The notes under the pieces were generated by a model, which searched no databases, was not told where the DNA came from, and saw only the letters and a program-made list of their open reading frames with translations. Shown in pieces: positions 14,811 to 62,099 of a DNA stretch of 64,000 bases. Source of the stretch: Octopus vulgaris (lineage: Eukaryota). Position 1 is the first letter of the stretch, and each line of letters opens with the position of its first letter. A program made the translations under genes and the position numbers. The stretch spans positions 50,654,001 through 50,718,000 of the forward strand of contig OX597823.1 in NCBI GenBank assembly GCA_951406725.2. Direction: 5' to 3'.

Positions 14811-14940
14811 GAAGGCGCATGACTCAGTGGTTAGAGCATCGAGCTTACGATCGTGATGATGAGAGTTCGAATCCCGGACCGGGCTGAGTATTGTGTTCTT
14901 GAGCAAGATACTTTATTTCACGTTGGTCCAGTTCAGCTGT
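14811..14940 (+). mobile_element. SINE family C, 5' part
   Basis: GGCGCATGACTCAGTGGTTAGAGC (A box) ... GAGTTCGAATCCC (B box). Confidence 0.8.
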
Positions 14941-15300
14941 CGTCAGCTGGCTTATTTGAACCAAAAAATCGAAGAATTGAGGCCGGAGATTGCTAACGGA
15001 GATTGGTTGGAATCTCTTAACCATCTACCATATTCTCCTGATATTGTGGCATCCAACTACCACCTGTTTTTGTCTCTAAAGAACTCATTGAAAGGAAAAA
15101 CATTTAACGATTTAACATTTAACGATGGAGTCAAAACGTATCTAAACTATTTTTCTTCAAAACCAGTCAAATTTTACGTTGATGGAATATTTAAACCACC
15201 TGATAGATGGGCAAAGGTCATTAATAATAATGTAAAATATTTCATTGAATAAAATTTATTGAAAGGTCAATTATTTACATCTTTTTGTATATTAAAAACT
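14941..15300 (+). pseudogene. Mariner transposase C-terminal fragment
   Basis: HLPYSPDIVASNYHLF...FYVDGIFKPPDRWAKVINNNVKYF (YSPDLAP-D motif variant). Confidence 0.9.
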
Positions 15301-15475: not shown

Positions 15476-15996
15476 GTATAGTTCTCCTTTCCCTTTCACC
15501 GTTCTCTCTCTCTCTCACTCTTCCTCCTTGACTCACTCGTTGATCACACGTGACTAACGGCCATTCTCTCTTTCTTCCACTTCCTTCCTAAAGACGAGAC
15601 GTGCTTTTATCTATCTCTTCTCAAAGCTCGTTTTTCCGGCGTTAAACACTTCACATCATCTTGACTTAACAACCCTCACCGTTTGTTTTTACTGTTTTGT
15701 TCTCACTGTCCTGTTTTTGTTACCACTTTCACCCTCCGCAAAAAATCCCAAATTTTACTTAATTTGCTTTGCGGGAAGGACTGTTTTAACGAAGTTGCGT
15801 CTTCTCCTTATCTTCGAAACACGGAGTAGGTAAAATAGGGGACAACTGATTAAGGGAATGTTCTTTATGTTGCATGTCTCGCTTCTCTGTTTTTTTTTTT
15901 TCGTTGTTAAAAAAGTTCATCTTCTATGTTTTTGTTTTTTATGTTCTCGGTTCACATTTTGTCCACATATTTTTATGTCCTGTACCCATATATGCA
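15476..15996 (+). mobile_element. ~520-bp retrozyme-like element (subfamily 2), single unit
   Basis: CT-rich tract, CACGTGAC motif and permuted hammerhead-like motif; ends in TA-rich microsatellite; homologous to 38465-38955. Confidence 0.7.
15731..15856 (+). ncRNA. Permuted hammerhead-like motif (decayed copy)
   Basis: CCCT [CCGCAAA..TTTGCGG] GAAGG a CTGTTTTA..GCGT C TTCTCC tta TCTTC GAA ACAC..TAAAATAG g GGACAA CTGATTA AGGG. Confidence 0.6.
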
Positions 15997-16111
15997 TGTA
16001 TATATACATATATATATATATGCAGGTATGTACATATATGTATGTATATATGCATATAATTATATATTATTTATATTATTATATGATCGAACGCTACGCA
16101 TCCTTTTCCAA

Positions 16112-16153
<42 letters not shown>

Positions 16154-16765
16154 GGTTAAGTAATTGAGATTCTAGTGAATTCTAAAGAATTCACATGAAT
16201 ATGGTCCTTAACTAGGATGCACCGGATATCTATATGGTGTTAACCATACGACAAGTGGGGTGATTACAAATAGGAAAAAAGCAACAAGAATGGATTAAAA
16301 TCTCGGTACGATCGTTTCGTACGAGGACATCTTTAATAAGCTACAAAAAATGCAGTGAATACAGATGGCTCGTACTCGTCAGCCGAAAAAATATCAGAGA
16401 ATTCCCAAACATCAAAAGGGGTAGATACAAAAGAGGTTGTAAGATTAACTGCATTGAAGAAAGTTCGATTCATGGAGATCCGATGAAAGGTTTTAAACCT
16501 ATAGAATTTATGCATGTCTACATATAGCTCATATTGAATATTTGATCAAGTTGTATGAAGAAGTTTTCGGATACAGTCATGCAAAATTTCTGAAAATCCG
16601 AGTAAGAGGCAAAGTGACTGCCATATCATGTAGAGGAAAGTCTGAGTAAAAACATAGTGACTGTCATATCGTGTAGAGGAACAGATTGTTATTGAAATTT
16701 ACAAGAATCGCAGATAAGTTCGATTTTTTGGAGATCCGATGAAAAAGTCTTGAACTTACAAAATT

Positions 16766-25875: not shown

Positions 25876-26327
25876 TAAGAACATACTTACTAATTTACAC
25901 ACACTAAGTTCATACTTATTGTATATTTTCTCAGATACTGTAAATAAGGTAGTAATCTACATCAAAATAAATTAAAGATGGAAGTAATCCACATGGTTCC
26001 AAGAATTGAATACGTTTTGTGCTGTGAAGGTGAAGTAAAGCCTAACGTTTTGAACATAAATCTATTTGTAGCAATTCGTAGTTTTACTGCTAAATGTTAA
26101 CACCTCTATATATTTTTTTCTTTTCGATAAATGTCACTTCTCCGAAACGTTGAACTTCTGTCTTTTTTTTTGCACGGCATAAAATATATTTCACTGTTTG
26201 AATCATTTGTATTACATGTTTGCTGATGCACAGCATCGTTAGCGTTTTCTAATTCTACTATTTTACTAAATGCACATGTCAATTCTTACATACCGCTCAA
26301 TATATAAACACAAAAACCGAAAGAACT

Positions 26328-26610
26328 ATGAACTGCAGAAGCGGAAATTCAATATGCTGCGTCAAATGCCCGAATTCTGAAGAGATATACGTTGGTCAGA
26401 CTGGGAATAGATTATCTGAACATTCACATGTGCACCGACAACAAATTAAGTACCGTGATATCCGTCAGATCCTTTTAAGTGACCATCTGGCAACATGTGG
26501 TCAGAAAAAGTTTATAATATTCTCATTCTACAATCTTTACAACTGAAAGGAAGTCGAAAGAACAAATTCAAGAAAATAATTTTCTTGATAGATTCACACC
26601 TATTTTAAAT
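26328..26610 (+). pseudogene. Penelope-like element GIY-YIG endonuclease 3' fragment
   Basis: NCRSGNSICCVKCPNSEEIYVGQTGNRLSEHSHVHRQQI...LSDHLATC, continuing to ...RFTPILN; followed by (TAA)n. Confidence 0.8.
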
Positions 26611-26659
26611 GGACAATAATAATAATAGTTATAGCACGGTGATAATTGTAATGATGATG

Positions 26660-29908: not shown

Positions 29909-29978
<70 letters not shown>

Positions 29979-30050
29979 GGTATGTAGAAAAATACAACAT
30001 GGACAAGAACGTATAACTCTTAGAAGACGACACAATAAACACGGACAGGA

Positions 30051-30215
30051 CATTCGAAACCCTCAGTCTTCAGTCAAGAACCGGATCATCGTAGTAATTT
30101 CGGCTGATTAATCTTGAGATTACTAGATCACGGCCAGCCCTCCAAGAAAAACCAAGCAACAAGCATTAGAAAAACTAAGCTGGAAGCGTAGATTTCCTGG
30201 AAGAAGGATCGAATG
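30051..30215 (-). ncRNA. Permuted hammerhead-like motif, copy 1 (core 30067-30139; predicted cut 30118/30117)
   Basis: Minus: GGCTGG CCGTGATC TAGTAAT C TCAAGA TTAA TCAGCC GAA ATTACTA CGAT GATCCGG T TCTTGA CTGAAGA. Confidence 0.7.
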
Positions 30216-30909
30216 CATACGAACACCAGGACAGCAAAAGGGACAGATATAAAAAAACAAAAAACAATAATGGAATACAGAAACATGAAATACAGAAGCA
30301 TTAACGGTGAAAACAACAGTGTCTTACGACTGATAACAAGCAAACAAATTTTTTCTCTGGCGCAATGGAAAAAGCCTTTATAGTGGCGGACGAAAACAGC
30401 GATGTTAACAAGACAAGGGTCAGAAGCTGAAAGGCAGATTTCGGCCAACAGTCACGTGACAGAGAAGAGGGAAAAGAAAAGAAAGGGAAGCAAAGGAAGA
30501 GAGAGAGAGAGGAGAGAGAGAGAGGAGGGACAAACGCAACAAAGAGAGAGAAGAGAGAGAAAGAAGGAATCAGAGAGGAGAAGGGATGGGTGTCGAAGAA
30601 TGACCTGTGAGTGCAGAGCGAGACAAAGAAATAGGAGGGTAGTGGAAGACTAGACCAAAGAATCAGAGGAAAGAGAAGAGAAAAAGAGGATGAGTAGAGA
30701 GAAAAGAGAGAGAGAGGGGGACAGATCAAGTAAAAATGAGAGAGAGAGAGAGACAAACAGAGAGTCGTACCAATTATTAAGAATATGTGCTCACATAAAT
30801 GTTAAGGGGGGTACGGGGCGCCTGGAATATATGTTAAGGTATGTAGAAAAATACAACATGGACAAGAACGTATAACTCTTAGAAGACGACACAATAAACA
30901 CGGACAGGA

Positions 30910-31074
30910 CATTCGAAACCCTCAGTCTTCAGTCAAGAACCGGATCATCGTAGTAATTTCGGCTGATTAATCTTGAGATTACTAGATCACGGCCAGCCCT
31001 CCAAGAAAAACCAAGCAACAAGCATTAGAAAAACTAAGCTGGAAGCGTAGATTTCCTGGAAGAAGGATCGAATG
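30910..31074 (-). ncRNA. Permuted hammerhead-like motif, copy 2 (core 30926-30998)
   Basis: Identical to copy 1. Confidence 0.7.
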
Positions 31075-31353
31075 CATACGAACACCAGGACAGCAAAAGG
31101 GACAGATATAAAAAAACAAAAAACAATAATGGAATACAGAAACATGAAATACAGAAGCATTAACGGTGAAAACAACAGTGTCTTACGACTGATAACAAGC
31201 AAACAAATTTTTTCTCTGGCGCAATGGAAAAAGCCTTTATAGTGGCGGACGAAAACAGCGATGTTAACAAGACAAGGGTCAGAAGCTGAAAGGCAGATTT
31301 CGGCCAACAGTCACGTGACAGAGAAGAGGGAAAAGAAAAGAAAGGGAAGCAAA

Positions 31354-31387
<34 letters not shown>

Positions 31388-31768
31388 GGACAAACGCAAC
31401 AAAGAGAGAGAAGAGAGAGAAAGAAGGAATCAGAGAGGAGAAGGGATGGGTGTCGAAGAATGACCTGTGAGTGCAGAGCGAGACAAAGAAATAGGAGGGT
31501 AGTGGAAGACTAGACCAAAGAATCAGAGGAAAGAGAAGAGAAAAAGAGGATGAGTAGAGAGAAAAGAGAGAGAGGGGGGACAGATCAAGTAAAAATGAGA
31601 GAGAGAGAGAGACAAACAGAGAGTCGTACCAATTATTAAGAATATGTGCTCACATAAATGTTAAGGGGGGTACGGGGCGCCTGGAATATATGTTAAGGTA
31701 TGTAGAAAAATACAACATGGACAAGAACGTATAACTCTTAGAAGACGACACAATAAACACGGACAGGA

Positions 31769-31933
31769 CATTCGAAACCCTCAGTCTTCAGTCAAGAACC
31801 GGATCATCGTAGTAATTTCGGCTGATTAATCTTGAGATTACTAGATCACGGCCAGCCCTCCAAGAAAAACCAAGCAACAAGCATTAGAAAAACTAAGCTG
31901 GAAGCGTAGATTTCCTGGAAGAAGGATCGAATG
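31769..31933 (-). ncRNA. Permuted hammerhead-like motif, copy 3 (core 31785-31857)
   Basis: Identical to copy 1. Confidence 0.7.
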
Positions 31934-32629
31934 CATACGAACACCAGGACAGCAAAAGGGACAGATATAAAAAAACAAAAAACAATAATGGAATACAGAA
32001 ACATGAAATACAGAAGCATTAACGGTGAAAACAACAGTGTCTTACGACTGATAACAAGCAAACAAATTTTTTCTCTGGCGCAATGGAAAAAGCCTTTATA
32101 GTGGCGGACGAAAACAGCGATGTTAACAAGACAAGGGTCAGAAGCTGAAAGGCAGATTTCGGCCAACAGTCACGTGACAGAGAAGAGGGAAAAGAAAAGA
32201 AAGGGAAGCAAAGGAAGAGAGAGAGAGAGGGAGAGAGAGAGAGGAGGGACAAACGCAACAAAGAGAGAGAAGAGAGAGAAAGAAGGAATCAGAGAGGAGA
32301 AGGGATGGGTGTCGAAGAATGACCTGTGAGTGCAGAGCGAGACAAAGAAATAGGAGGGTAGTGGAAGACTAGACCAAAGAATCAGAGGAAAGAGAAGAGA
32401 AAAAGAGGATGAGTAGAGAGAAAAGAGAGAGAGAGGGGGGACAGATCAAGTAAAAATGAGAGAGAGAGAGAGACAAACAGAGAGTCGTACCAATTATTAA
32501 GAATATGTGCTCACATAAATGTTAAGGGGGGTACGGGGCGCCTGGAATATATGTTAAGGTATGTAGAAAAATACAACATGGACAAGAACGTATAACTCTT
32601 AGAAGACGACACAATAAACACGGACAGGA

Positions 32630-32794
32630 CATTCGAAACCCTCAGTCTTCAGTCAAGAACCGGATCATCGTAGTAATTTCGGCTGATTAATCTTGAGATT
32701 ACTAGATCACGGCCAGCCCTCCAAGAAAAACCAAGCAACAAGCATTAGAAAAACTAAGCTGGAAGCGTAGATTTCCTGGAAGAAGGATCGAATG
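32630..32794 (-). ncRNA. Permuted hammerhead-like motif, copy 4 (core 32646-32718)
   Basis: Identical to copy 1. Confidence 0.7.
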
Positions 32795-33640
32795 CATACG
32801 AACACCAGGACAGCAAAAGGGACAGATATAAAAAAACAAAAAACAATAATGGAATACAGAAACATGAAATACAGAAGCATTAACGGTGAAAACAACAGTG
32901 TCTTACGACTGATAACAAGCAAACAAATTTTTTCTCTGGCGCAATGGAAAAAGCCTTTATAGTGGCGGACGAAAACAGCGATGTTAACAAGACAAGGGTC
33001 AGAAGCTGAAAGGCAGATTTCGGCCAACAGTCACGTGACAGAGAAGAGGGAAAAGAAAAGAAAGAGAAGCAAAGGAAGAGAGAGAGAGAGGAGAGAGAGA
33101 GAGAGGGACAAACGCAACAAAGAGAGAGAAGAGAGAGAAAGAAGGAATCAGAGAGGAGAAGGGATGGGTGTCGAAGAATGACCTGTGAGTGCAGAGCGAG
33201 ACAAAGAAATAGGAGGGTAGTGGAAGACTAGACCAAAGAATCAGAGGAAAGAGAAGAGAAAAAGAGGATGAGTAGAGAGAAAAGAGAGAGAGAGGGGGAC
33301 AGATCAAGTAAAAATGAGAGAGAGAGAGAGACAAACAGAGAGTCGTACCAATTATTAAGAATATGTGCTCACATATATATATATATATATATGTGTGTGT
33401 GTTTGTATATTTGAGGATTTTGTGTATATACATCACATCCATCCATCCATCCATCCATCCATCCATACCATACATACATACATACATACATACATACATG
33501 CGTACATCTAAATATGAAGAGAAGTGCAATTTGCGATATTTTGAGTTTATGTACTTTCCATATATTTATACCAACGCGGATATTCAGGAAGCATTTGAGA
33601 CATTCGCACACACACATACGCATACACGCACGCACACACA

Positions 33641-38051: not shown

Positions 38052-38464
38052 ACGTGTAGTTGTTTTTACATTTTGTAATTAGTTCATTTAAATACCAAAC
38101 CGGTTTCCATAATTTTCTGCTTATCAATGGTAAAAAATAAAATAAAATATAGGTTTTTGGAGAGTTTAAATTTCGAAAAAAACATGTTTAATTGATCAAA
38201 TGTTCACAGAAATTTCAATGACTTTCACAGAGATAGGCAATAATATTGTATAAGTTTAAAAGTTCAATGAAGATCATAACCAATACACACGATTGAACGT
38301 TCAGTCATTCAATTTTTATTTTAAAAAAGCGGTGGGAGCGATAGAAAAAGTACTGTGTAAAGGAGTTTTTTCTCAATTTCAGTTGTAATACATGAGGTTC
38401 TTTACGTTGGTCGCTTGTTTGAGTTCGAAATGTTATAAGTGAAAATCGTTTAGTACATATATAT

Positions 38465-38955
38465 ACTAAACAGGACAGTGGAGACATACAGGGAAACCGA
38501 ACGAAAACAAACTTGGAGGGTCGTTAGACCTGTACGAGGGGAAAATAATAAACGCTGAAAGAAATATTTTCTTTGAAAAGAGAAAAGATAGAAGAGAGAG
38601 GTGAGAGACGACCAGTCCTTAGAAGGACAGTGCAGGAAAGAAAGATGGACGATGGTCACGTATGAGCAAAGATAGAAAAAAAGAGAAAGACAGGAAGAGG
38701 GAGATAGAGATAGAAAATAGTGAAAGCGAGAAAAAGCGAATTAGAGAGGATAGTGGAGAAAACAGTATAGAGCGCATCAAAATGCATATATTGGTACAAG
38801 ACATCACTAACATTAAACAGCATGAAATCCGAAAACAAATTAGTTAAATACGCAAATAACGAGAAAAAAAGGACAAGTAATACAAAAAAATGACCCTTCA
38901 TCAGTTGTCGGGTGTCTATTCCCTATTTCGAGCAATCAGCGACAATATGAATCTT
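38465..38955 (-). mobile_element. ~490-bp retrozyme-like element (subfamily 2-related), circularly permuted relative to 15476-15996
   Basis: Shared blocks CTGATGAAGGG, TGTC(C/T)TGTACC(C/A)ATATATGCAT, CT tract, ACGTGAC, TAAC(A/G)ACCCTC..GTTTGTTTT, CACTGTCCTGTTT in rotated order. Confidence 0.7.
38898..38953 (-). ncRNA. Permuted hammerhead-like motif, 5'-truncated
   Basis: Minus: TTCAT A TTGTCG ctgatt GCTC GAA ATAGG...CACC CGACAA CTGATGA AGGG. Confidence 0.6.
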
Positions 38956-39169
38956 CATTATTTATGTATGTGTGCGAGTGAGTGTGTGCGTGAAGATTTT
39001 CACGCACGAAGCTGTGACATCAAATAATCAATTATGTTGAGGTATATTTGGCCAGAAAAACAACATTTTCATTGCGGTTGCTATGGAAAAAAACTCCTCT
39101 CGCTTTAGGTAGCATATGTATGTATGCATGTATGTATGCATATATGTATGTATGTGTATGTCTGTATGC

Positions 39170-43739: not shown

Positions 43740-43936
43740 ATGTATGTATGTATGTATGTACGTATGTGTGTGTGTATGTGTATATACAGATAGATAGAAA
43801 GACACAAATACTACTCGGTGAGTGCATGTGTGTGTGTGTATACATACATACATGCATACATACATACATACATACATACATACATACATACATACATACA
43901 TACATACATACATACATACATACATACATACTTACA

Positions 43937-44340
43937 TACCTCAGAGAAGACCTGGATGGAAAGCACTCAGCATGCAAAAAAAAAGAAGACTATGCCCGGA
44001 AGGTTGAAAAAGACAGTAGAATTGACACGAAGCGCAGGCCCTCTTGGACACTTTGAAGGCTATGCGTTTGCAATCCAAGAACAGGAGATTACCACAAAGT
44101 ACCTGGTGAACAAGAGAGACAGTGACGCTCTTGTAATCCGAAGGTGCAACTGCATGTGTAGGCAATGTCATGTTTCTGTAGAAGATGTAATGCATGTGAT
44201 TAGTAGCTGCCCTAAAATGTCGCCACGGTACTATCTCCCTATGCGGCACGATGTTGTCGCTAAAACAATTTACAATGCAATCCGCAAGAAAGACTGAAAT
44301 AAACTTAGAAAATCCTTCTTTAGAATCAAAATGTCTCACG
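43937..44340 (+). pseudogene. R4-clade (RLE) LINE fragment, CCHC finger region
   Basis: FAIQEQEITTKYL...CRQCHVSVEDVMHVISSCPKMSPRYYLPMRHDVVAKTIY; paralogous to 46540-46920. Confidence 0.85.
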
Positions 44341-45679: not shown

Positions 45680-47440
45680 TTGACAAAGGTATGTGCTACT
45701 TTAGTTTGCTGTCATTGAGAAGCTCACAAATACCTTGCCAACACTTCTCACACTTACAACTGGGAGCTGAAAGATCATTTCCAACATTATAAATATTTCA
45801 ATGGTAATATTCAAAGGAGATAGACTTCCTGTAATTCTGTTCACTTTGGCATTAGATCCATTACTATTCCTGCTGCAAAAATCAAGTGGCTACATGCTAG
45901 GGTCTGCAACGGCTAGAGACATTAATGTAACCCATAATTTCTTTGTGGATGATCTGATGATTATGCTAAAAATGTTAATAATCTCCCCCACCAAAAAAGA
46001 AAAAAAAAGCTGAAGATATTTAGTTGTTGGACGCGGAAAATCACCCCGCTACCCAAAATCTGTGCATCAATGGTCACCCTATATCTCCTGTTCCACATAA
46101 AGAACCTTACAATCATATAGGCATTAGTGAAAACATACGAAGATAGAGTGACCCGAAAATATTATGCCAGAATAAGAAAAGTATGGCAGTCGAAATCTCC
46201 TGTTGTAACTAAACAATATCCCACAATGCAGTTGTAGCACCAGTGCTGATTCCGTGCCTTGGGATACTTGATTGGTCTATAAAGGAAACTGTGATGTCGA
46301 CAGTAGCTACGTAAGAAGGATCAAAAGAGGTAGAGGTATGAGATCAGTGTAGACAGCTATCGAATGTCGGATAGTCCCTCTTAAAGAACACCTGTTAAAC
46401 AACCGCAAAAAAATAAATACGCAAACATAGGGCAGGAAAGCTAAGAGAAATAACATCCGACGAGTTGGCAGTGAATCACACAAGACGTACTCTCTTCCTG
46501 ATTATCTTACATGCAACCTCTAAAACAGCCGAACTAACGTACCTCAGAGAAGACGTGGATGTGAAATGTTCAGCAAACAAAACTTTTTTTTTTTAAATGG
46601 CTATTCATGGATATATTTACCGAAGACTCGAAGTCAATAACATCGACATGAAGTGCAACCTCACTTGGACTCGTGATTGCTACATCACATCACAATTCAA
46701 GAACAGGGGATTGCTACGAAATACCTGATAAGCTAAAGATTCAGTGAAGGGCTTGGAACACCAAGATGCAACCGAAAATACAGATTATATCATATTTCTG
46801 CGGAAGCCATCTTACATGATTAGCAGCTGCGCAAAAATGTCATCAAGGTATTACCTCCCTATGCGACGACTCGACGCTTTCGCAAAAACGATATATAATC
46901 CCATCCGGAAAGAAGAGTGTTCTGGAATAAATATACAGAAACCCCTTGCTATTGAATATGTACACAAACAACAACAACACATAGAATATTGGTCGAACAT
47001 TCCTATCAAAACATCTATCAAGTGTAAGCATAATAGGCCGGATAATGTTTGGGACTGATTAGAAGAAGTAGAGGTCAGCTGCCTTACTAATGCGGACATC
47101 TCATCGAAAATCAAAGAAAGTGGATAACCAAAGACATCTGCTTCGAAACAACCAGTTCGTATTTCCAGATTATAAATTGACATTTACACTTATAAAAATT
47201 GGTGTAATAGGTTTTCTGAGTAAATGCTTAAGTGACAATCTGGATAAGCCAAGATTTCCAGAAGACAATAACCAGCTAATTCGCATATTGCATACAAAAT
47301 CTGTAAGTGGAAAAGTAAGACTATGCAAGACTTTTAAGTGTAAAACGTGAATTTGTTTTTTGTTATTTACATTACAGCGACGGAGCTTTGTAGCTTTGTT
47401 AGAAACTAGCTCATTCTTTAGAGGAAGGTATGAATTAATT
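45680..47440 (+). pseudogene. Decayed R4-clade LINE (RT plus RLE)
   Basis: IFKGDRLPVILFTLALDPL...VTHNFFVDDL (RT core), then ISSCAKMSSRYYLPMR, CKHNRPD, EVSC, IKIGVIG. Confidence 0.85.
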
Positions 47441-47758: not shown

Positions 47759-48445
47759 ACCAGGTTCTCGCTGCCAAGTCAGTGAAATATAACATATATA
47801 AAACTTCTGACACCCAGAAATGCAGACTCTGGAAAGAGTGTGAAAAGTGTGACCCACTTGGTAAGTAGATGTGAGAGCCTTGCACAAAAAGAATACAAGC
47901 GCCACCACGATAAAGTGTGTGTGTATCTTCATTGGCTCTTATGCCGTAAATACCAACATGAAATAACAGAGAACTGGTATGAGCATGTACCAAGCAAAGT
48001 TATGGAGGAGGATGGAAAAGTAACGATACTCTGGGACAATGATTTTCGAAGTAATCGAAGAACATCGGCCGGATATTGTCATATTGAATAAGAGAGACAA
48101 ATACTGTCAGATCATTGATATAGCCATACCAAATGACATGAATGTTGTGAGTAAAGAGGTTTAAAGAATCATCAAGCACTCCGAATTGAGAGTGGAAATG
48201 GCAAGACTGTATGGAATGCGAGAGGGAAATGTAAAAGTGATGCCAATAGCGATCGGAGCATTGGGTTTAACCGCATTGAAACTTCAAAGCTTCTTAAGGA
48301 ATCTGGAAATCCCATGCAAGATTGAAGTCTTGCTAAAAGCAGCCTTACAGAGCACAGCGCATATCTTAAGGAAAGTATTATCTGTCTGAGGTCCTTGTTG
48401 TGACTTGACATATGATTAAAGACTCTGGTGCATTTTTACGAAGGA
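47759..48445 (+). mobile_element. 5'-truncated Dong/R4 retrotransposon in a TAA-rich tract
   Basis: DQVL..KCRL..SVTHLVSRCESLAQKEYKRHHDKV..WYEHVP..ILWD..RPDIV..IIDIAIP..PIAIGALG..STAHILRKVL*, followed by (TAA)n at 48446-48547. Confidence 0.9.
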
Positions 48446-54221: not shown

Positions 54222-54379
54222 CTTTATTTTAAGCAGCAGAAAATTCAACAAAATCTGTTACTCTGAGTTTCTCGTTGCCGTTCATCAGACACTTTTTGCT
54301 TGCAAAAACTGTCTGATGAACGGCAACGAGAAACTCAGAGTAACAGATTTTGTTGAATTTTCTGCTGCTTAAAATAAAG
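54222..54379. repeat. Near-perfect 158-bp palindrome
   Basis: Arms CTTTATTTTAAGCAGCAG...CATCAGACAC and reverse complement; 1 mismatch near the centre. Confidence 0.95.
54305..54351 (+). ncRNA. Type I minimal hammerhead ribozyme (mirror copy on minus strand at ~54250-54296)
   Basis: CTGT CTGATGA a-CG-GCAA-CG-a GAA ACTC a GAGT A^ACAG: stem I CTGT/ACAG, GNRA-capped stem II, stem III ACTC/GAGT, GUA triplet. Confidence 0.8.
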
Positions 54380-54992: not shown

Positions 54993-55445
54993 CGGAATAT
55001 AGATGTTGGTTTGACCGCCGTCCGTGCAACATCTATATTCCTCCCTGTGCCTGTCAAACCTTGTATCCCTGCCGTAAGGCCTTATTTCCATGCACACCAG
55101 CTTAATTTAATTCGTCCTTAGTCGAAAGACACCTGTTTTTATGTCCTGTTATTTGTATTTGTGAAACATACTCCGTTATTTTTCAGTCCTTGTTTTCGTA
55201 TACATTCGCTGCTTTCTTCCAAGGAATCTAATGCTCTTAGATTAGTTTTTCATTGGGGCTGGCCAGATTGGAGCAATCTCGAGTATAACCAGCCGAAGTT
55301 GCAAAGATAATCTGGAACTCGACTGAAGAAAGAAAACTCCGAATGACCCGTCCTTGTTTTCTTTGTATCGTCTATCTGGATTTTTTGCTGTCCCTTTTTT
55401 GTTTCACCTAACTCTCTGGATGTTTTACGTTCTTGTCCCATTTTG
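54993..55445 (+). mobile_element. Retrozyme-like element (subfamily 1-related), single diverged copy
   Basis: Homologous to the array unit: GTCGAAAGACAC, CATTCG, motif core, CGAATG, ACGTTCTTGTCC; ends in (TA)/(TG)n. Confidence 0.75.
55203..55345 (+). ncRNA. Permuted hammerhead-like motif (core 55257-55329; predicted cut after 55278)
   Basis: GGCTGG CCAGATTG GAGCAAT C TCGAGT ATAA CCAGCC GAA GTTGCAA AGAT AATCTGG A ACTCGA CTGAAGA; 73 nt, collinear with the array motif. Confidence 0.7.
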
Positions 55446-55637
55446 TATAATATATATGTGTGGGTGTGTGTGTACGCGTGTGTGTATATATACAGGTATA
55501 TACATACTTGTATATATATACATATGTATATATATATATATATGTATATACATATATTTATATGTATATATATATACATATATACATGTATGTATGTATA
55601 TGCACACACACACGCACGAACATACATTTATATATAT

Positions 55638-57978: not shown

Positions 57979-59143
57979 TAGGTCTGATCAATAAGCAATC
58001 GGACTGGTGCTATAAAAGCAATACTACAACACGTACCAATTCGGCATTTAATCTCCTACAAAGTAGCCCCCCTCAGAAGCCACACACTTAATCCAGTGCT
58101 GTTTCCATTGATGGAAGAATTCCTGGAACTCGCTTTCTGGGATACTCAGCAGCTATTTCGTCGCATTCGCATTCATTTCCTTGTCGTCCTGAAATCTTCT
58201 TCCTTTCAAGCGGGATTTTGGTTTTTGGAAAGAGGAAAAAGTCGCAAGGGACGAGATCTGGGGAATGCGGTGGCTGTCAGACCTGGGTTATGCCGTGCCT
58301 AACCAAAAACTGCTGCACAAGCTGCACTGAATGGGCAGGTGCTTTGTCAGCTGAAAGTAGTTTTGGCACAAACTTGGCAGACACACGTATCATACTCAAA
58401 TCTTCGGTGATAATGGACTGAACTGAACCGTATCTAATCTGCACATCTTCTGATAGCTCCTGGATGGTGATTCGACGATTTCCCCTCACAGCTGCACGCA
58501 CATGTGCGATGTTTTTCTCAGTTCTGCTGGATGCAATTCTCGTAGAACGCTCGTCACTGTCGACAATTTCCCGGCTCGTACACACCTCTCCATACACTTC
58601 CATATTTCTTTATTGCCCCCCAAGGGGCTAAACATAGAGGGGACAAACAAGGACAGACAAAGGGATTAAGTCGATTACATCGACCCCAGTGCGTAACTGG
58701 TATTAATTTATCTATACCGAGAGGATGAAAGGCAAAGTCGACCTCGGCGGAATTTGAACTCAGAACGTAGCGGCAGACGAAATACCACTAAGCATTTCAC
58801 CCGGCGTGCTAACGTTTCTGCCAGCTCTCTGCCTTATACTTACACTTACTCTCTTTACATTTTCTGCAACTTTGCACAGGCCTCTGAACAGGTATCGCCA
58901 AGCTTTTGGTAAAATTTGATGCAGATTCCCTGCACAACTTCTCTGCCATGGTCAATGTGAAGATCACATGTTACACACGTTCTATCCAAGCAGCGCTGTA
59001 AACAACGGAAGTGAGCTAGAACGTTAAAACTTAATGCGCGTGCACAGCAGAGTTCAAGGTCAATTTGTGCCAAGCAGCTTCACTCTGCGTGCTTTAGCTT
59101 CGTTACTATAGCAACAGTCCTGATACTTATTGATCAGACCACT
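57978..59143 (-). mobile_element. Defective mariner element with both TIRs, interrupted by a SINE
   Basis: TIRs GGTCTGATCAATAAG / CTTATTGATCAGACC; minus ORFs CIKFYQKLGDTCSEA, RRITIQELSE..GSVQSIITEDLSMIRVSAKFVPKLLS, PHSPDLVPCD. Confidence 0.9.
58603..58834 (-). mobile_element. SINE family A nested in mariner
   Basis: Near-consensus copy. Confidence 0.92.
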
Positions 59144-61662: not shown

Positions 61663-62099
61663 ATAGTGTCAATATGATCAAATTCCAGTTTAATTATGTA
61701 ATTTAAATTGTATAACTAATAAGCGTTCTTTGATAATAAAAACGTGCATAAGATGTTTCAAGCAATCTCACATCTTTTATTATATATACATATGTATATT
61801 TATATATGTACATATATATGTGTGTCTGTGTATGTATGCATATATATTTATACACACACACATATATGTATATATATATGTGTGTATGAGTGTATATGTG
61901 TGCGTGTGTATATATATATATATATATATATATGTACATACTTAACATATATGTACGTATATATAATAAAAGATATGAGATTGCTTGAAGCATATTTAGC
62001 TATGCCATCTTATGCACGTTTTTATTATCAAAGAACAATTGTTAGTTATACAATTTAAATTACATAATTAAATTGGAATTTGATCATATTTGACACTAT
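61663..62099. repeat. ~125-bp inverted repeat arms around a TA/TG microsatellite (foldback/MITE-like)
   Basis: ATAGTGTCAATATGATCAAATTCC...TCTTTTATTATATATAC and reverse complement, with a ~15-bp indel. Confidence 0.9.

Follow-up and report, generated by a model that had tools for sequence, protein, structure and literature searches.

A rotated copy of an abundant non-coding repeat and a predicted rewired hammerhead ribozyme

Introduction

The 64,000-nt stretch of Octopus vulgaris DNA analysed here (contig OX597823.1, positions 50,654,001 to 50,718,000; hereafter the window, to which all coordinates refer) is AT-rich and microsatellite-rich, with an animal-like composition. It contains two members, copy A and copy B, of a very abundant non-coding repeat family that carries a predicted hammerhead ribozyme, together with a tandem array, T, and a dispersed relative of this array, copy D (Table 1). 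In the public run X1, the summed contig depth is 731–47,147 in bins at 38448–38726 compared with 7–20 in the unique flank, depth being distinct from copy number. The units measure about 560 bp or more in A/B and 859 bp in T, are non-coding and have a GC content of 38–42%. A, T and D adjoin TA runs and B adjoins a short TA run. No convincing target-site duplication was found for these four insertions, and no reading frame combining reverse transcriptase and GIY-YIG endonuclease lies in or beside any of them.

Table 1. Coordinates of copies A and B, their parts, array T and copy D in the window
Feature	Positions	Strand	Description
Copy A	15476-15997	+	Order: CT tract, ACGTGAC, ribozyme, 3' motif
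Segment missing from B	15717-15786	+	70 nt of the unit, present in A; contains the upstream strand predicted for stem II and the larger part of the 5' strand of P4
Predicted upstream stem II strand of A	15775-15779	+	Within the 70 nt missing from B
P4 5' strand of A	15781-15788	+	Mostly within the 70 nt missing from B
A hammerhead, decayed	15775-15852	+	Family majority letters restore core and stems I, II and III
(TA)19 after copy A	16115-16152	+	Preceded by a 117-nt TA-rich stretch
Array T	29975-33374	-	Four near-identical units of 859-861 bp less 37 nt, inside a TA tract; same predicted ribozyme wiring in each unit
Inverted repeat at B 3' junction	38448-38471	+	8 bp, perfect, around a short TA run; overlaps the last 4 nt of B
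Copy B	38468-38960	-	Rotated, less-than-unit copy of the high-copy non-coding repeat
B block 2	38468-38732	-	CT tract, ACGTGAC, up to CACTGTCCTGTTT; matches A 15482-15716
B inner junction	38733-38781	-	3' motif into CT tract; without counterpart in forward A; bridged by contigs X1-7 and X4-31
B block 1	38782-38960	-	Runs from 10-14 nt upstream of the predicted cut through the 3' part of the ribozyme and a T-rich stretch to the TGTACC..TGCAT motif; counterpart of A 15787-15997
B hammerhead remnant	38898-38951	-	AUA (H17 = 38946), GAAA 38929-38926, CUGAUGA 38904-38898; stem I 38945-38940/38910-38905; upstream stem II and P4 strands missing
Copy D	55147-55447	+	Dispersed relative of T; same predicted wiring at 55257-55329, with compensatory changes

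Pattern scans found no further copies in a first viral scan or in genome contigs. A total of 61 pattern matches, 59 from a second viral scan and two at identical GC-rich metagenome loci unlike the family, were treated as chance because none matched A, B or T at an expectation value (E) of 1e-3. Three family motifs are absent from the consensus file of the Naiad elements (PMC8557442 supplement), in which line breaks could hide matches, and no RNA-labelled runs are listed as containing the stretch; run X23, which is only presumed to be RNA and consists of contigs, was not counted as a sign of expression. Dips in contig depth across the ribozyme were not accepted as copy ends, because subfamily differences would also give dips and ends are not visible in contigs.

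Two blocks in swapped order

The initial annotation described A and B as the same blocks in rotated order, and all the motifs that it named sit at the positions it gave. Alignment against 15476–15996, for which it had proposed a dot-plot, bears out the rotation. A 15482–15716 aligns with B 38732–38468 (65% over 267 columns, E 1e-16) and A 15787–15997 with B 38960–38782 (60% over 213 columns, E 1e-4), with z-scores of 14.1 for the CT-tract block and 9.9 for the ribozyme/3' block against 300 dinucleotide shuffles. In the same kind of test, the first block scores z 15.4 after removal of the CT tract, and the two same-order control pairings of A and B give z-scores of -1.4 and 1.0. When A is rotated in silico, its score against B climbs from 146 and levels off at 195 for offsets 15726–15786. 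It is confirmed that A and B hold two common blocks in swapped order and that the rotation is real.

B is smaller than one unit, as it lacks 70 nt of A and has about 50 nt (38781–38733) in addition to what is found in forward A. These 50 nt form its inner junction, which is spanned with one or two differences by the contigs X1-7 (38640–38859) and X4-31 (38573–38859); because these come from two public runs, the junction is not an assembly error. As counterparts of the junction, both the tail of A (z -0.1) and the inverted 5' arm of A, a CT-rich stretch upstream of A (z 1.5), were rejected. The exact passage from TGCAT into the CT tract may be private to B and not native to the family. In each of four runs, 77–121 contigs go on past 38468 with A-like family sequence, and hence the 3' end of B is internal to the family unit. 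Also, in three runs, one contig apiece follows B as far as 38956 and then joins 38468, which indicates that B-like blocks also exist in the order of A.

The start of B, placed a few nucleotides before the predicted cut by the initial annotation, does lie upstream of it, but at a distance of 10–14 nt and not at the cut itself. At the other end, B stops 85 nt before the next predicted cut. In the 5' flank of B (38986–39007), a 9-bp hairpin precedes a CA-rich run and the contig depth is high as far as 39005; this flank probably marks the end of a different abundant repeat, the likely insertion target of B.

A predicted hammerhead core in type-SGC order

In B, T and D, the conserved blocks follow one another as cut site, GAAA and CUGAnGA, which is the order of type-SGC hammerheads only. 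With a descriptor for this order, B and each of the four T units are matched in the window; these five matches compare with 0.075 on average in 40 shuffles, and a relaxed descriptor matched T and D. Canonical type I, II and III folds were rejected for B, and none of the canonical orders agrees with the cores of B, T or D. Rfam gave no match on the window at gathering thresholds or on B by E-value. The core is complete in B and in the four T units, D has GAAG and A has CUGAUUA. Across A, B, T and D, 31 of the 32 cells of stems I and III pair and six of the eight pairs change on both sides. The covariation score of these stems was reached by none of 500 shuffles, against which it weighs that the basis is four sequences from two families, with the structure read from the same sequences.

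What had been counted as a fourth stem I variant in B, TTGTCG with CGACAA, pairs at six of six positions and differs from the stems of A, T and D. The core of B had been called intact; its CGAAA and CTGATGA letters are, but the third pair of stem III is mismatched and the upstream strands of stem II and P4 are missing. Similarly, the ribozyme motif reported in A is present at its place, but its core is decayed and stems I and III contain mismatches. Family majority letters, taken from contigs at least 80% alike with the region after 15988 skipped as a repeat, restore A. In run X1, the core G at the decayed site accounts for 41,230 of 41,597 depth, the restoring letter in stem I for 7,492 of 7,748 and the restoring letters in stem III for 13,267 of 16,110 and 1,381 of 3,081, the last of these reaching 72% in run X2. 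The stem III mismatch in B is copy-specific (38924 T>C in 921 of 1184 depth), and the UUCAUA of B pairs with the majority sequence GAAAUG(A/G)G.

Stem II is predicted to be closed in T, D and the family majority of A by a strand upstream of the cut, which leaves the chain open between A9 and G10.1. In T, the upstream strand yields -8.3 kcal/mol (0.7% of random stretches) versus -3.2 kcal/mol (11%) for the downstream strand, and the corresponding values in D are -10.5 kcal/mol (0.1%) and +0.8 kcal/mol (77%). An extra helix, P4, is supported at 0.6% of random stretches in T, where it has one bulge, at less than 0.05% in D and at 0.5% in A. The majority letter at 15811 turns the upstream stem II of the A family into GAAGG/CCUUC, and in loose ends of B-like contigs GAGCA occupies the upstream-strand site and UGCUC precedes GAAA, three compensatory changes that were read in separate consensus lines. 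Against this wiring, the upstream stem II of the decayed copy A is at background (10%). The CCUUC of the A family could alternatively pair with a GAAGG that overlaps the core, which would give an inactive fold. A second outer helix, in which the sequence following CUGAnGA would pair with that preceding the upstream strand of stem II, was rejected at 12–54% in T, D and A, which is not above background.

B lacks the upstream stem II and P4 strands because both fall in the missing 70 nt, and its 4-bp downstream option for stem II is at background (26%); hence its own ribozyme is probably dead. For the family as a whole, the rewired ribozyme is a well-supported prediction. No report of a hammerhead wired through an upstream stem II strand, or of permuted hammerheads in animal retroelements, was found in the literature searched, most subscription papers being outside the search.

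Two further observations concern the ribozymes of the window. In both T (32634–32622, minus strand) and D (55340–55352, plus strand), a conserved CGAAUG lies about 10 nt downstream of CUGAAGA and is itself followed by GUCC. About 200 nt past the TA tract of A, at 16382–16301 on the minus strand, there is a type I hammerhead in canonical order, whose stem I has 6 bp, whose stem II has 7 bp and a long loop, and whose stem III is short and palindromic.

Array T and copy D

The units of T differ pairwise by 0–1 substitutions and 1–3 gap columns, and the two ends of the array are 37 nt apart on the unit. The passage from 3' motif to CT tract occurs three times in T, and T makes a stronger case than B for a multimeric product. 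The translation of its spacer region resembles the end of a Penelope-type open reading frame. D is similar to T at z 27 and 5'-truncated. A resemblance of D to the 3' part of A (z 3.0) lies in T-rich sequence and was not relied on.

Proposed origin of copy B

Behind the observed rotation, abundance, end positions, ribozyme block order and pairing of stems I and III, we tentatively propose a process of cutting, joining and priming by a borrowed enzyme: B would derive from one reverse-transcription run of a Penelope-type enzyme on an RNA monomer that had been cut by its own rewired hammerhead and whose ends had been rejoined. Head-to-tail copies would be transcribed and cut by the hammerhead once per unit. 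The strands of stem II, P4 and stem III that immediately precede the cut would all pair with strands 3' of it, and these three helices would hold the ends of the cut monomer together, thereby favouring ligation or an end-to-end jump of the enzyme. Priming of B would start from a nick in the short TA run, at an internal RNA site about 85 nt upstream of the cut, perhaps via a snap-back hairpin and the 4-nt overlap at 38448–38471. Subsequently, copying would run for about 490 nt, cross the cut junction and halt 10–14 nt later, 70 nt short of a full turn, and would in this way leave B without the strands that its own ribozyme needs. A wider reading, which we regard as possible but doubtful, holds that a functional hammerhead, in a block order beyond the six published ones and with its chain open between A9 and G10.1, would promote copying from circles through its three-helix clamp, that B would be a single run across the rejoined cut and that the same fold would be the ribozyme that Naiads are reported to lack.

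The initial annotation had likewise taken the rotation as evidence for a circular or multimeric intermediate, and in its favour B runs from the 3' part of the unit into the 5' part. The rotation is not independent proof of a circle, however, because partial tandems are standard for Penelope-like elements, uncut tandem RNA works as a template and a trimmed genomic tandem looks alike; from one copy it cannot be told whether a circle, an uncut multimer or a trimmed tandem lies behind it. Several further observations weigh against the proposed origin. The expected clustering of copy ends at the cut did not appear, with none of the eight ends of the four insertions in the window located there, and the nearness of B to the cut is a weak argument, as the chance that one 5' end in four falls within 15 nt is 9–17%. 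The similarity of T, which has the analogous junction, to A/B is not significant (z 0.9–1.7). An autonomous partner linked to A/B was found neither among the reading frames of the window nor by homologue search nor in the Naiad consensus file. DNA break repair, too, leaves snap-back insertions with microhomology, and the hairpin at 38448–38471 suits internal priming and DNA repair equally; 1.5% of window positions are as near to such a hairpin as the 3' end of B (39 hairpins in all, noticed post hoc).

Neither a cut nor a circle would be needed if B stemmed from a single reverse-transcription run on an uncut head-to-tail transcript, with an internal start and a chance 5' truncation near the ribozyme. 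B does span the cut intact, with a contig match that reaches 38956, which speaks for our proposal as well, and tandem arrays are present in the window, but none of the A/B family is seen there. For an Anolis element in vitro, internal initiation is described, uncut tandem RNA is the dominant template and mutation of the ribozyme leaves insertion normal (Frangieh et al. 2024, PMC11167929), and the dominance of uncut RNA also counts against our proposal. The long stems of the majority ribozyme should nevertheless cut during transcription, and the start of B near the cut would become a coincidence of the size given above. We consider this origin rather unlikely. Alternatively, B may have been an ordinary partial tandem, consisting of a 5'-truncated 3' piece and a complete unit, of which at least the last 280 nt were later deleted and repaired in DNA. 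In line with such trimming, the ends of A, T and D abut a TA tract at least 143 nt beyond the cut, and only B stops before the cut; the 8-bp inverted repeat with its 4-nt overlap would suit microhomology-mediated repair. Partial tandems are, moreover, the usual layout of Penelope-like elements (Craig et al. 2021, PMC8557442). We judge this history unlikely, as the deletion has to end at a short TA run and an earlier end-to-start template is still needed. A contig across the 3' junction (38201–38497, 0–1 other letters), of which only 30 letters lie inside the element, is also common to all four runs, with three organism labels, and no longer form of B is among the joints listed for these runs.

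B could also be a composite of two family pieces, brought together by an enzyme jump between two RNAs or by side-by-side insertions, in which case the junction would say nothing about the native unit. Two contigs from other copies lose their match to B on the CT-tract side at 38771–38773, 38773 being 9 nt short of TGCAT, and the 117-nt TA-rich tail found at the 3' motif of A is absent at the B junction (the z of -0.1 given above). Both points also speak against an origin from one rejoined monomer, and the abundance of the family and its preference for simple repeats fit a composite. On the other hand, no TA tract or duplication separates the blocks of B, the 3' motif meets the CT tract in the order repeated in T, the summed depth in the junction bin is about ten times that of the flank (again not copy number) and one other contig has both B-like blocks. 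Hence, we regard a composite as improbable. The copying of a self-cut and rejoined monomer, as proposed above, is the origin towards which we tentatively lean.

Other features of the window

A decayed frame at 26253–26620 (plus strand) lies at the end of an open reading frame and is followed by (TAA)n, without a link to A/B. We take it to resemble a GIY-YIG endonuclease, with a motif like the YVGQT of Naiad proteins; a protein search gave no Pfam or homologue match. Broken frames at 43794–44297, 46732–47058 and 47786–48091 resemble the C-terminal part of restriction-like-endonuclease (Hero-type) retrotransposons, and the one searched against Pfam had no match. Fragments at 14863–15252 (plus strand) and 58277–58609 (minus strand) resemble a mariner transposase, with one weak helix-turn-helix match in Pfam (E 0.025). 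The window also contains two long palindromes: the first, at 54230–54370 and centred near 54300, carries CTGATGA in each arm, and the second, at 61663–62099, spans about 440 bp with 79% identity.

Comparison with known systems

Rotation is a known kind of feature for Penelope-like elements and retrozymes, and because head-to-tail copies of both are already known, it adds little on its own. A circular template was proposed for Penelope-like elements in 2014 (Cervera and de la Peña, PMC4209133), and the abundance of the present family makes this proposal testable. In the metazoan retrozymes without long terminal repeats (non-LTR), circles have been shown, the hammerhead is of type I and the units measure 150–450 bp (Cervera and de la Peña 2020, PMC7229834); a 2026 preprint ties retrozymes to Penelope-like elements (Li, Clavereau, Pollet, bioRxiv 10.64898/2026.07.22.740005). 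As described in these sources, non-LTR retrozymes resemble the repeats of the window in being non-coding, with less than 45% GC, one hammerhead per unit and both monomers and tandem arrays, the latter represented here by T only. For both, a Penelope-type enzyme is the presumed copier of circular templates, the circles being putative here. In contrast to their type I ribozyme, the one predicted here is a non-circularly permuted form, and the units are longer.

Penelope-like elements typically show partial tandems, TA targets and a 30–40-nt tail (PMC8557442). 5' truncation and head-to-tail partial tandems recur here, as B crosses a unit junction, T has about four units and D is 5'-truncated; TA-microsatellite targets, a ribozyme near the 3' end and internal priming are further likenesses, the last of them putative here. 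The end offset of 30–40 nt may have a counterpart in the 37 nt of T, and for A there is only the inverted CT-rich stretch with its z of 1.5 against the B junction. Unlike autonomous Penelope-like elements, A and B have no reverse transcriptase or GIY-YIG frame, and B ends before the ribozyme, whereas they end after it.

Naiads, in the account of Craig et al. (PMC8557442), lack canonical hammerheads, and eight of them are listed there as 'HHR_half_core'. Of ten Naiad 3' ends from its supplement read by eye and named by file order, three (two Octopus, one Pomphorhynchus) show the same wiring as predicted here, one (Euprymna) has stems I and III only, four are of type CSG and two were not resolved. 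Four 3' ends carrying the 'HHR_half_core' label, from three nematodes and one spider, look on reading by eye like permuted hammerheads of type CSG in which all three stems are complete. If an open-backbone hammerhead does work, it would account for the 'half-core' motifs of Naiads.

Type-SGC hammerheads (HRIMA-1 and variants) cleave and come from metatranscriptomes, with none reported in genomes of known organisms (Eckert et al. 2023, PMC10085705). In these ribozymes the strand directly after CUGAnGA closes stem II, a link that the authors assume cannot be opened, and a hammerhead working with its backbone open between A9 and G10.1 would break this assumption of the current classification. The ribozyme of the window shares with type-SGC the order of cut site, GAAA and CUGAnGA, covarying stems I and III and a short linker between the strands of stems I and II. 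It differs in that an upstream strand is predicted to close stem II in T, D and the majority of A, together with the extra helix P4. Type-SGC ribozymes have a helix that joins the far sides of stems I and II, and P4 is a different one. Also, in contrast to the metatranscriptomic source of type-SGC, the ribozyme described here belongs to a repeat in an animal-like genome.
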